A DNA stretch of 64,000 nucleotides from an uncultured Trueperaceae bacterium (GCA_963799485.1 CAWCXJ010000001.1:96001-160000); one strand, 5' to 3'. Shown: positions 11,155 to 17,536, counted from the stretch's first letter. Notes: a model not told the origin generated them from the letters alone. Made by a program: numbers and translations.

Positions 11155-14716
<3,562 letters not shown>

Positions 14717-14720
<4 letters not shown>

Positions 14721-15280
14721 CCCCTTTTGCCCCCATCGACATTCTCCTTCCGCTGCTCTGGCTGTTTATCGTCGTGGTGTCGGCGCAGCGGGGCTTGGTC
14801 GGGCTGATTGCCGGGCTTGCCGGGGCCGTGTTTCTCAAACCGCTGCTGCTGGTTGCAAACTACAGTGCGCCGCTCGCGCTCGTGGTGGCGCTTTTGCTCG
14901 GCTTTCTAGTGACGATGTTGGTGCGGCCTTTTCCCAACCTGAGTTACCGCCAACCGCGCTGGGGCTACTTGTTAGGGACGCTCGGCGGCGCGGTTTTGGG
15001 AACCGCGCTCGTGTTAACGCTGCTCGTTTCTTTGCCCATGGGCCGTGACTTAAGCGGGGCGGTGCGTTATCCCGACAAAGAGATGCCCTTTGCAGCGTTG
15101 TTCGAGCGCTCACGCCTGGTTTCGTTCGGACGTGCTATTTTGCTGTATCCGCTGCTCGAGCAGAGCGGTGAGATTGCCCCCGCGAACCGGGGCGTCTTAA
15201 ACGCGCTGCACACGATGTTCGTTGTCGGGCAGCCGTGGGAGGAGGGCGAGGGAAGACTCTCGGGAAAGCGCAAGCCCTGA
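14717..15280 (+). CDS. Hypothetical membrane protein (weakly CvpA-like)
   Basis: Four hydrophobic segments; ATGA coupling to pheT. Confidence 0.7.
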
Positions 15281-15370
15281 TTTGCGGCAGGTTTTAGCTT
15301 ATCTAGTGAGCCGGTTATAAGCGCTACACCTCTAGAGGTTATGCGTTCCAAGCCGGTTTTATAAGCCGAT

Positions 15371-15660
15371 ACCGTTAGCGCCACGAGTGCTGGCTGCAAG
15401 TCAGGTGACGAGGTGGAGGGCTTTTACCCCCGGACACGCATATATATTGCGTTCGGGTGGTAAAAGATAAGGTAACGGTTGACGGCGCTATCATCCCGAA
15501 CCGTACCGAAAATGCGAAGCTGTCTGCGGGCCCCTCCCGTCTTTTGATGCTCGAGTCCTGCCGGAATCCCAACCGGCGCAAAAAGTCGTTACGAAAACCG
15601 GTAGAAAAACCTGAAGGCGTGCCTGTGAGGTCAGCGGCCTGTAGGTATTGTGTGGCTGCG
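15371..15660 (+). ncRNA. glmS ribozyme variant with internal insertion; 3' boundary approximate
   Basis: AGCGCC (15377-82), P1 CTGGCT/AGTCAG, TGACGAGG (15406-13), GGAGGG pairing with CCCTCC near 15532, ACCGAA...TCTGCGGG; sits in the glmS leader. Confidence 0.75.
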
Positions 15661-15715
15661 TCTAAACACGCGCAGACCTTGTTGTTGATAGCAGATGTTG
15701 ATATAGGAGACTTTT

Positions 15716-17536
15716 ATGTGTGGCATCGTGGGTTATGTAGGACACCGCCAGGCGGCGGAGGTAATTCTAGACGGGCTCAAAAGGCTCGAGTACCGGGGCT
15801 ACGACTCCGCCGGGGTCGTGATTTCAGGCAAAAACGAAGACGCGCTTCAGGTGACCAAAAGGGCCGGAAAGCTCAAGGTTCTAGCCGCCGCGCTGCAAAC
15901 CAAACCGCTCGCCGGCACGCTCGGCCTCGGTCATACACGCTGGGCGACGCACGGCAAACCCAACGACGTCAACGCGCATCCGCATCTGTCCGAAGACGGC
16001 AAGCTCGCGGTGATTCATAACGGCATCATCGAAAACTACCTGCCGCTCAAGTCGCGGTTGCAAACAGCAGGTCACGTCTTCGCTTCCGAGACCGACACCG
16101 AGGTCATAGTTCACCTCATCGAAGCGCACTATCAGGGCGATCTGGTCGCGGCGGTGCGGAGCGCCCTGCGCGAGGTAACGGGCGCGTACGCGCTCGTGGT
16201 GTCGCACAAAGACCACGACCTGATTGTCGCCGCCAGAGCCACCAGCCCGATGGTTCTGGGTCTCGGCGACGGCGAGACCTTCGTCGCCAGCGACGTACCG
16301 GCGCTCTTGCCGTATACCCGCGAGGTCGTGTTCCTGCACGACGGTGATATGGCGCTGTTGACCCGGGACGGCGTGACGATTACCGACTTCGGCGGCAACG
16401 TGTTGGCGCGCAGCAGCACTACCATCGATTGGGACGCGGAAGCGGCGGAAAAGGCCGGCTTCGAGCACTTTATGCTCAAGGAAATCTACGAGCAGCCCAC
16501 GGTGTTGCAAAACACGCTCGGCGGGCGCTTTGCTGCTAACGGGGCGGACGTGCAGCTGGGGCTGAAGCTCGATCCGAACGACATCGACCGGGTGGTCGTG
16601 AGCGCGTGCGGCACCGCCTACTACTCGGGCATGGTCGGCGAGTATCTGATCGAAAAGCTCGCGCGTATCCCCGTAGACGTCGAGATTGCCAGCGAGTTTC
16701 GTTACCGCGAGCCGGTCTTGAATGACCGCACGCTCTGCGTGGTGGTGTCGCAGTCGGGCGAGACGATCGATACGCTCGAGGCCCTCCGCGAAGCCAAAAC
16801 CCAGGGCGCAAAAACACTCGCCATCCTGAACTCGAAAGGCTCATCCATCAGCCGCGAGGCCGACGACGTTCTTTACATCCACGCCGGCCCGGAAATCGGC
16901 GTCGCCAGCACCAAAGCCTATACCGCGATGGTCGCGGCGTTTGAACTGTTGGCCATCTTTTTAGGCCGCGCCAAGGGTGCGCTCAGCGGTGAACGCGCCG
17001 CCGAACTCATCAGCGCCTTGCGGCAGCTGCCGGTTTTGGTCGAAGAGACGCTGCAAACCCGCGCCGAAGTCGCCCGGATTGCCGAGACCTACAAAGACAA
17101 GCGTGACTACCTCTTTCTGGGCCGGGGTGCGAACTATCCAACGGCTTTGGAGGGTGCGCTCAAACTCAAAGAAATCTCGTACATCCACGCCGAAGCCTAC
17201 GCCACCGGCGAGATGAAACACGGCCCGATTGCGCTCATCGATTCGGACATGCCGGTCGTAGCGGTCGCTACCGCCTCGGCCTTGTATGACAAAACCATCT
17301 CGAACTTGCAAGAGGTGCGGGCCAGGGACGGCATCGTGATTGCTCTGGCCAGCGAAGGCGACACCCGCATCGCCGCGCACGCCGACGCTGTGATCTATGT
17401 CCCGGCAACCCTCGAGCTCGTCTCACCGATTGTCAACGTGGTGGCGCTCCAGCTTTTGGCTTACGAAACCGCTGCGCGGCTCGGGCGCGATGTTGACCAG
17501 CCGCGTAATCTGGCCAAGAGCGTCACGGTCGAGTAA
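15716..17536 (+). CDS. glmS: Glutamine-fructose-6-phosphate aminotransferase
   Basis: MCGIVG, LEYRGYDSAG, GHTRWATHG, SQSGET, PRNLAKSVTVE. Confidence 0.99.
   Translation: MCGIVGYVGHRQAAEVILDGLKRLEYRGYDSAGVVISGKNEDALQVTKRAGKLKVLAAALQTKPLAGTLGLGHTRWATHGKPNDVNAHPHLSEDGKLAVIHNGIIENYLPLKSRLQTAGHVFASETDTEVIVHLIEAHYQGDLVAAVRSALREVTGAYALVVSHKDHDLIVAARATSPMVLGLGDGETFVASDVPALLPYTREVVFLHDGDMALLTRDGVTITDFGGNVLARSSTTIDWDAEAAEKAGFEHFMLKEIYEQPTVLQNTLGGRFAANGADVQLGLKLDPNDIDRVVVSACGTAYYSGMVGEYLIEKLARIPVDVEIASEFRYREPVLNDRTLCVVVSQSGETIDTLEALREAKTQGAKTLAILNSKGSSISREADDVLYIHAGPEIGVASTKAYTAMVAAFELLAIFLGRAKGALSGERAAELISALRQLPVLVEETLQTRAEVARIAETYKDKRDYLFLGRGANYPTALEGALKLKEISYIHAEAYATGEMKHGPIALIDSDMPVVAVATASALYDKTISNLQEVRARDGIVIALASEGDTRIAAHADAVIYVPATLELVSPIVNVVALQLLAYETAARLGRDVDQPRNLAKSVTVE

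Follow-up and report, generated by a model that had tools for sequence, protein, structure and literature searches.

Among natural ribozymes, the glmS ribozyme alone is known to employ a metabolite as its cofactor. For Bacillus subtilis it is established that the cleaved glmS mRNA with its 5'-OH end is degraded, which provides feedback control of GlmS, and a peripheral P4/P4.1 domain (P, paired region) and independence from upstream sequence belong to the textbook features of the ribozyme. Here we describe an RNA element located directly upstream of glmS, and on the same strand, in a 64,000-nt stretch of DNA (the window) from an uncultured Trueperaceae bacterium (GCA_963799485.1 CAWCXJ010000001.1:96001-160000). 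Judged by its core sequence and pairing features, this RNA is a descendant of the glmS ribozyme, and we consider it highly probable that positions 15259-15577 form a glmS ribozyme with an architecture specific to its bacterial family, here called f1. An earlier note on this DNA had already recognised a relative of the glmS ribozyme, and this is borne out by the core motifs and pairings in the window and by the same design in 87 leaders.

The classical core, as described in PMC7125110 and PMC11602151, comprises P2.2 (C2-G56 to C5-G53) and P2.1 (28-30 with 43-45); the active-site guanine is the last G of GACGAGG (Bsu G42 / Tte G40; PMC11602151). The element shares with the Bacillus / Thermoanaerobacter tengcongensis type (Rfam family RF00234) the position in the glmS leader, the A^GCGC site (^, cut), the P1 hairpin, the GACGAGG strand, P2 formed by GGAGG with CCUCC, a P2.2 helix made by the four nucleotides that follow G1, the P3 hairpin and, in most f1 members, the P3-loop pseudoknot P3.1. 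It differs in lying below every Rfam threshold, in carrying a 90-nt two-hairpin domain in place of a P2/P2.1 linker of 3-5 nt, in having GCG for UCG in P2.1 and GGGCC for GGAUG after P2.2, in the absence of canonical P4/P4.1, in a new helix (P0) for which one strand comes from upstream of the cut and, in the window species, in a 104-nt insertion in P1. The Deinococcus-type ribozymes, compared here as loci L009 to L016 of the sister families f2 and f5 (31.7 to 49.4 bits with RF00234), have in common with f1 the AGCGCAAG site paired with UCUGCGG and a short P1. In addition, f2 has GCGAG in the P2.1 strand, and in f5 the P2.1 and P2.2 strands are separated by an insertion (22 nt in L009) that can be compared with the optional hairpin HP3 of f1. 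Unlike f1, they keep GGAUGCC, P3 and P4/P4.1 in a form alignable to Rfam, and they are without the domain of hairpins HP1 and HP2.

A family of glmS leaders and its putative catalytic core

No glmS (RF00234) match was obtained in the window with Rfam 15 at gathering scores (cmscan), and a search of the whole source genome (G000) with RF00234 gave zero matches. The gathering score of RF00234, 37 bits, was taken as the operational criterion of membership in a survey of 41 related genomes, G000 included. Four genomes, all from f5, exceeded it (42.8 to 49.4 bits), the four f2 genomes all scored 31.7 to 35.6 bits, and f1 is a blind spot of the model, with 0/25 genomes (G000 among them) above the cut-off and a best score of 25.6 bits. 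Weak matches, none above that value, were seen in 6/24 genomes of f1, the full-length ones reaching 25.6, 22.6 and 14.7 bits. The last of these, in G011, overlaps a DNA match to the window, and the window is thus linked by homology to RNAs that RF00234 half recognises. We infer that f1 corresponds to the Trueperaceae, since the closest glmS proteins in named records (75 to 77% identity) come from metagenome-assembled genomes labelled with that name.

Reading of the relatives yielded 87 distinct glmS leaders, seven further loci having been dropped because they had no GACGAGG block in range. These leaders have in common the design CUCGAG-RW-A^GCGCAAG-CCC[P1]GG-UGACGAGG-Y-GGAGGG-[HP1]-AUA-[HP2]-GAAARYGCGAR, continued by [HP3, optional]-AAGUCUGCGGGCCCCUCC-[P3]-CUCGAG-N3-8-[strand pairing with P3 loop], and all the invariant core motifs of the family are present in the window. 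The 5' pattern GACGAGGNGGAGGG-N20-50-ATARG occurs in 38/128 family genomes (20/36 genera; two control hits) and the 3' 16-mer GTCWGCGGGCCCCTCY in 93/128 (31/36 genera; one control hit); both tallies include the unpublished genome G115, and the 35 genomes without the exact 16-mer lie outside the leader comparison. Across the phylum, the 16-mer was found in 92/127 f1 genomes (G000 left out), as against 1/236 in the other five families, with three control hits; for the f2 and f5 genomes the figure is 1/144.

The proposed structure was marked on an alignment of 14 leaders (A1) and its pairs were counted. In A1, 94.1% of cells are paired, compared with 31 to 46% after an offset of 1 to 3 columns between partners, and 28 of the 48 pairs change on both sides; the observed values were reached by none of 500 shuffles. 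Covarying pairs are found in P0, P1, HP1, HP2, HP3, P3 and P3.1. Moreover, the unconstrained minimum free energy (MFE) structure of 15255-15580 recovers P0, the long P1, P2, HP1, HP2 and the downstream hairpin (z = -3.35; 0/100 shuffles fold as well). The features of the element are collected in Table 1.

Table 1. Features of the candidate ribozyme and its gene, in window coordinates
Feature	Position	Strand	Description
P0, 5' strand	15259..15264	+	CUCGGG; in the leader upstream of the predicted cut; pairs with 15550-15555
Cleavage-site motif	15267..15274	+	A^GCGCAAG; predicted cut A15267/G15268; C15269-A15272, P2.2 5' strand
P1	15276..15405	+	13-bp closing stem CCUGAUUUGCGGC (15276-88) / GCUGCAAGUCAGG (15393-15405)
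'Cleavage site' of the earlier note	15375..15382	+	UUAGCGCC; inside the P1 insertion; not the family site
Catalytic strand	15407..15413	+	GACGAGG; CGA 15409-11, P2.1 5' strand; G15413, putative counterpart of the active-site guanine
P2, 5' strand	15415..15420	+	GGAGGG; pairs with CCCUCC 15532-15537
HP1	15421..15466	+	hairpin CTTTTACC...GGTAAAAG; begins directly after P2
Junction	15467..15470	+	AUAA; between HP1 and HP2
HP2	15471..15507	+	GGU, bulged A, ACGGUU, 18-nt loop, AACCGU, ACC
Purine-rich strand	15508..15519	+	GAAAAUGCGAAG; GCG 15514-16, proposed P2.1 3' strand
P2.2 and P2, 3' strands	15522..15537	+	GUCUGCGGGCCCCUCC; UGCG 15525-28, P2.2 3' strand; GGCC linker; CCCUCC 15532-37, P2 3' strand
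P3	15538..15549	+	reduced to CGUC-UUUU-GAUG, 4 bp; no P3.1 in the sub-lineage
P0, 3' strand	15550..15555	+	CUCGAG; directly after P3
Downstream hairpin P4'	15560..15577	+	GCCGG-AAUCCCAA-CCGGC; present in the MFE structure
glmS	15716..17536	+	putatively regulated gene, 606 aa; Pfam SIS and GATase_6/7 domains

The features listed in the earlier note, namely AGCGCC (15377-82), a P1-like hairpin, UGACGAGG (15406-13), GGAGGG/CCCUCC, two hairpins and two 7-mer complements, all lie where it had placed them. Its cleavage site, A15377/G15378, was misplaced: the likely cut is A15267/G15268, about 110 bases upstream, a placement on which the motif of the family, a P2.2 without mismatch and the 13-bp P1 all agree. 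The full site motif CUCGGGAA-A^GCGCAAGCCC is found at 15259-15277, where the window reads CUCGGG-AA-A^GCGCAAGCCC. Two leaders from the same genus, L002 (genome G005) and L003 (G001), carry an identical motif, and NAGCGCAAG is present in 86/86 related leaders whose site was located by that same motif. A covariance model of the 5' half (R1; 56 positions, built from 21 leaders of other genera) gave two partial matches in the window, one with its site positions aligned at 15255-75 (17.0 bits) and one to the GACGAGG/GGAGGG block at 15407-20 (20.6 bits). The A^GCGC(C/A) sequence followed by P1, in the window AGCGCAAG, also occurs in the Rfam-detectable relatives. The P2.2 strands match at 4/4 positions in the window and pair in 96.4% of cells in A1, and the fourth pair changes on both sides between the Rfam consensus (CGCC/GGCG) and Deinococcota (CGCA/UGCG). 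UCUGCGG, which the earlier note had listed as a deviation, is the norm of the phylum and pairs with the CGCA of AGCGCA.

The GACGAGG strand is invariant in alignments A1 to A3 and identical to the Rfam consensus, and P2, which encloses the 3' strands of P2.1 and P2.2, is invariant and fully paired in 14/14 rows of A1. The P2.1-strand motif was located in 86/87 leaders by the pattern AA[AG]N[CT]GCGA, and in 85 of these it takes the form AAA[AG]YGCGA[AG]. In the window this strand matches the CAGCGAG of the Deinococcus-type RF00234 matches; the counterpart of AUCGAA is the GCGA within GAAAAUGCGAAG, and not ACCGAA as had been supposed. Both deviations behind the idea of a rewired core turn out to be lineage norms. 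Within P2.1, the pairs C15409-G15516 and G15410-C15515 are possible; the positions are invariant and hence show no covariation, and GCG is also found in f2. As a separate observation, the leader L018/L101 (G009) carries the P2.1 motif GAAAAUGCGAA three times in tandem, between HP2 and the P2.2 strand.

The periphery: HP1/HP2, P0, P3 and the P1 insertion

The earlier note was right that a large insertion follows the 5' strand of P2, but the switch that it considered is not supported: the insertion is a conserved two-hairpin domain located between P2 and the 3' strand of P2.1. The segment from GGAGGG to GAAARYGCGA holds exactly two top-level hairpins in 85/86 leaders, HP1 starts at offset 0 from P2 in 86/86, and the junction between HP1 and HP2 reads AUA in 56/86, AUAA in 9/86 and ACA in 7/86. 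Covariation of the insert across relatives, a check that had been proposed with the original claim, was found for pairs of both hairpins; in HP1, A1 shows two-sided changes at 7/7 basal pairs, and the stem sequences are diverse. In the window, the HP2 stem ACGGTT/AACCGT (15475-80 and 15499-15504) closes a loop (15481-98) that holds GGCGCUA at 15484-90. HP3, between the P2.1 and P2.2 strands, is found in 61/86 leaders and is missing in 25, the window included. We also considered HP2 as a substitute for the GNRA loop of P4.1, and rejected it: the apical loop of HP2 is of the GNRA type in just 20/86 leaders.

P0 is formed by six nucleotides located 1 to 3 nt upstream of A-1 and six nucleotides that follow P3. 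At least five of its six pairs can form in 59/84 leaders, compared with 0/84 when the 3' strand is reversed; this count leaves out three leaders (two that have no 4-bp P3 and one in which the site was not located), and the choice of the spacer among three lengths introduces a slight bias toward pairing. Four of the six pairs change on both sides in A1. The compensatory types include CUCGAG/CUCGAG (17 leaders), CGCGAG/CUCGCG (11) and CACGAG/CUCGUG (7), as well as the rarer GUCGAG/CUCGAC (2), GUCGAG/CUCGAU (2), AUCGAG/CUCGAU (1) and UUUGGG/CCCAAG (1).

The stem of P3 covaries within the family (UGAG/CUCA, CGAG/CUCG, CGUC/GAUG, CGUG/CACG), and P3.1, between the P3 loop and a downstream strand, can form at least 5 bp in 76/84 leaders, compared with 21/84 in the reversed control. 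A UUUU loop on P3 is shared by the window with L002, L003 and L004, and in the window, G001, G004 and G005 it goes together with the absence of P3.1. At the place of the downstream hairpin P4', a hairpin of the form YGGGYU...CCCR recurs, by eye, in many relatives; no canonical P4/P4.1 was seen in the window, and none alignable to Rfam in the f1 relatives. The classical periphery of P3/P3.1 and P4/P4.1 is accordingly reduced here to a P3 of 4 bp.

The closing stem of P1 encloses the 104-nt insertion (15289-15392) in RNAfold predictions of both the segment and the whole element. Among the genus members, G001 has a homologous long P1, the closing stem of which is of another sequence yet still paired, G005 has a plain P1 of 22 nt with no insertion, and the P1 segments of G004 and G002 are 29 and 55 nt long; across the leaders, P1 segments of at least 75 nt occur in 7/86. 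The idea of the insertion as a mobile or repeated element was dropped, as it is found only in the two cassette copies of the source genome (see below). Nor does it appear to be copied from the downstream ribozyme, whether inverted or direct: the 7-mer partners do not follow a collinear order, and direct 7-mers are no more frequent than by chance. Within the insertion lies a direct repeat, AGCCGGTTATA / AGCCGGTTTTA, at 15309-15319 and 15351-15361, the near-palindromic GCCGG core of which recurs in the downstream hairpin at 15560-77. Long P1 or HP3 insertions with internal direct repeats are seen in several genera (L124, L025, L114, L007/L024, L170), for example of the GATGATACC type in L124 and L025 and GCGTAGATGCGCC in L114. 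Possibly, such repeats are protein-binding sites or remnants of small repeats.

Proposed self-cleavage and its alternatives

We favour the reading as a glmS ribozyme in which the catalytic double-pseudoknot core (site, P2.2, GACGAGG with the P2.1 strand facing GCG, and P2) would have been kept and the periphery rebuilt, with HP1/HP2 placed between P2 and the 3' strand of P2.1, P0 as a new helix and canonical P4/P4.1 absent. The 104-nt insertion in the P1 loop and the enlarged HP2 loop would be species-level additions, accompanied by the loss of HP3 and P3.1, as in three genus-mates. GlcN6P (glucosamine-6-phosphate) would serve as the cofactor for self-cleavage at A15267^G15268, and the glmS mRNA with its 5'-OH end would then be degraded, resulting in feedback control of GlmS. 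Cleavage of a co-transcript would also leave the message of the upstream open reading frame (ORF) without its stop codon, since the predicted cut lies 13 nt before it. Because HP1 begins without a linker, it probably stacks on P2. The strand that follows P3 lies where P4 begins in the classical ribozymes, and P0 would thus stand in for P4 topologically, between P3 and the 3' strand of P3.1, while drawing its other strand from the 5' leader. Together with HP1/HP2, P0 may take over the stabilising role on P2.1 that P4/P4.1 has in the classical ribozyme (PMC11602151). The complete scenario, a re-architected class in which P0 and HP1/HP2 replace the P4/P4.1 buttress and in which a GlcN6P-triggered cut couples glmS to its neighbour, is put forward tentatively, as a possibility that we ourselves regard as somewhat doubtful. 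If the coupling is true, the event that turns glmS off would, in this genus, deprive the mRNA of the upstream membrane protein of its stop codon.

Several observations weigh against this reading. The model R1 failed to join both halves across the P1 insertion into one match, and a search for RNA sequencing runs that contain the stretch gave none (best share of words, 0.23). The search with the Rfam glmS model that the earlier note had suggested was run and gave no match to 15250-15750, either at the gathering score or even at E<=10. P2, P2.1 and P2.2 are unvarying within the family and hence lack covariation themselves, P2.1 would have A-G as its third pair, the linker after P2.2 is GGGCC as opposed to GGaUG in the Rfam consensus, and the sub-lineage of the window has lost HP3 and P3.1. 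The linker, the A-G position, the lost or non-canonical peripheral elements and the lack of an Rfam match would suit an RNA that descends from the ribozyme but has lost cleavage and acts as a GlcN6P sensor or as a structured leader with another role. We consider this unlikely, given that the leaders examined show no variation in A^GCGCA, GACGAGG, P2 or the P2.2 strand; such a core, together with the widespread 16-mer, fits selection on the catalytic core. Moreover, GCGA for UCGA also occurs in the Deinococcus-type matches at 31.7 to 35.6 bits, and a core-only construct of 66 nt, without P3/P4, cleaves in vitro (PMC7125110); as the core alone can cleave, the P3/P4 periphery is not essential to the class.

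The earlier note offered a different explanation, in which GGCGCUA (15484-90) and UAACGGU (15473-79) sequester a cleavage site at A15377/G15378 and thereby form a conformational switch. Both complements are indeed exact (ACCGTTA at 15371 with TAACGGT at 15473, and TAGCGCC at 15376 with GGCGCTA at 15484), and a local hairpin, CUGGCU/AGUCAG at 15390-15404, could act as a short P1. The element is also rich in such matches: 15255-15600 contains 12 complementary 7-mer pairs, compared with 4.0 +/- 2.8 in 500 shuffles, although two of them belong to the real HP1 stem and three of the pairs of the P1 insertion share the near-palindromic GCCGGUU, as read by eye; between the P1 insertion and the rest of the element there are nine 7-mer complements against an expected 1.38, a number reached by 0.3% of 400 shuffles. 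In G001, however, the same count is at chance (1 vs 1.0), and the two complements in the window overlap on UA in swapped order, so that they cannot form one helix. The supposed site lies in a P1 insertion that varies between species: a counterpart of UAGCGCC is missing both from G005, where there is no insertion, and from G001, the insertion of which is without AGCGC, and the GGCGCUA loop sequence is kept in none of the four other genus members with a leader (G001, G002, G004, G005). Cleavage there would also leave a C-U mismatch between AGCGCC and UGCG at pair 5-53, where mutations are reported to be strongly detrimental (PMC7125110), and would require a spacing of 7 nt from site to P1 in place of 2 to 3; R1 deletes its own site positions near 15378, and the family motif with its perfect P2.2 partner lies at 15267-72. 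The complementarity is thus directed neither to the predicted cut nor conserved, the proposed gating switch is unsupported, and we regard cleavage at A15377/G15378 as very improbable, the least probable of the explanations considered here. Pairing of the HP2 loop with the true site was tried as well: in the window it amounts to 5 bp through the palindromic GCGC, in G005 to 6 bp with a wobble pair, and nothing specific was found in G001, G004 or G002, so that we judged it to be chance.

The exact 7-bp match of GGCGCUA with UAGCGCC connects regions that are both predicted as loops or hairpins, and this might instead point to a species-specific tertiary contact, in which the enlarged HP2 loop kisses the UAGCGCC hairpin and stabilises the fold without gating it. 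It would bear a loose analogy to the classical ribozymes, in which a peripheral loop touches P1 in the L4-P1 tetraloop-receptor contact (PMC11602151), and 20/86 relatives carry a GNRA loop on HP2. A 7-mer complement to the P1 insertion is, however, produced by 4.4% of 5000 shuffles of the 18-nt HP2 loop, for this loop-insertion pair alone, the GNRA caps are limited to those 20 leaders, and the two partners do not go together in the genus: in G005 a long HP2 loop is combined with a short P1 that is plain, and in G001 the insertion is combined with a different HP2. Hence a kissing contact appears improbable to us, if slightly less so than the switch.

Returning to the family-specific ribozyme, the literature searched, glmS in Truepera included, yielded no account of such a variant, although an earlier description is possible; we would call new the P0 helix, the insertion point of HP1/HP2 and the family-wide distribution. 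The proposed architecture departs from the classical one in three respects across a bacterial family, with a domain inside the core, no canonical P4/P4.1 and a covarying helix in which the 5' cleavage product takes part, and it would constitute a natural experiment in which the same active site is buttressed in different ways. For annotation, the likely cut site and the 5' boundary of the ribozyme lie inside an annotated ORF, a place that is not normally checked.

Gene context and duplicated copies

A start of the MCGI type was found within 750 nt downstream in 46/47 of the leaders with at least 750 nt of sequence. Upstream, the ORF at 14717-15280 (+) encodes a hydrophobic protein of 187 aa, for which no Pfam or NCBIfam family was found, and its stop codon is at 15278-80. 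In the genus of the window, the last 22 nt of this ORF overlap the P0 strand, the cleavage site and the start of P1; in other genera (e.g., L109, L115), a similar C-terminus (...VVGQPWE-like) ends before the ribozyme, as judged by eye. PheT (phenylalanyl-tRNA synthetase beta chain) is encoded at 12309-14720 (+), and since this gene and the 187-aa ORF that follows share 4 nt, an operon pheT-orf187-(ribozyme)-glmS is suggested. A simple consensus scan, which is not evidence of absence, gave no sigma-70-like promoter in 14600-15800. As the ribozyme starts inside the ORF, transcription of a complete ribozyme has to begin within or upstream of that ORF.

A stretch of 2,389 bp occurs twice in the assembly with 100% identity, at 15147-17535 of the window and at G000:C9:140067-142455 (minus), and runs from within the upstream ORF, of which it includes the final 134 nt, through the entire ribozyme to the stop codon of glmS. 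The two copies lie in different flanking contexts, and the contamination of the genome is 4.63%; either a recent duplication of a ribozyme-glmS cassette or an assembly artefact would account for them. Elsewhere, G084 carries a second exact copy of the 16-mer (G084:C1:2994918-2994933, L172) with no GACGAGG block nearby, and G141 has two full copies on separate contigs; these extra copies may be further duplications or a chance match.

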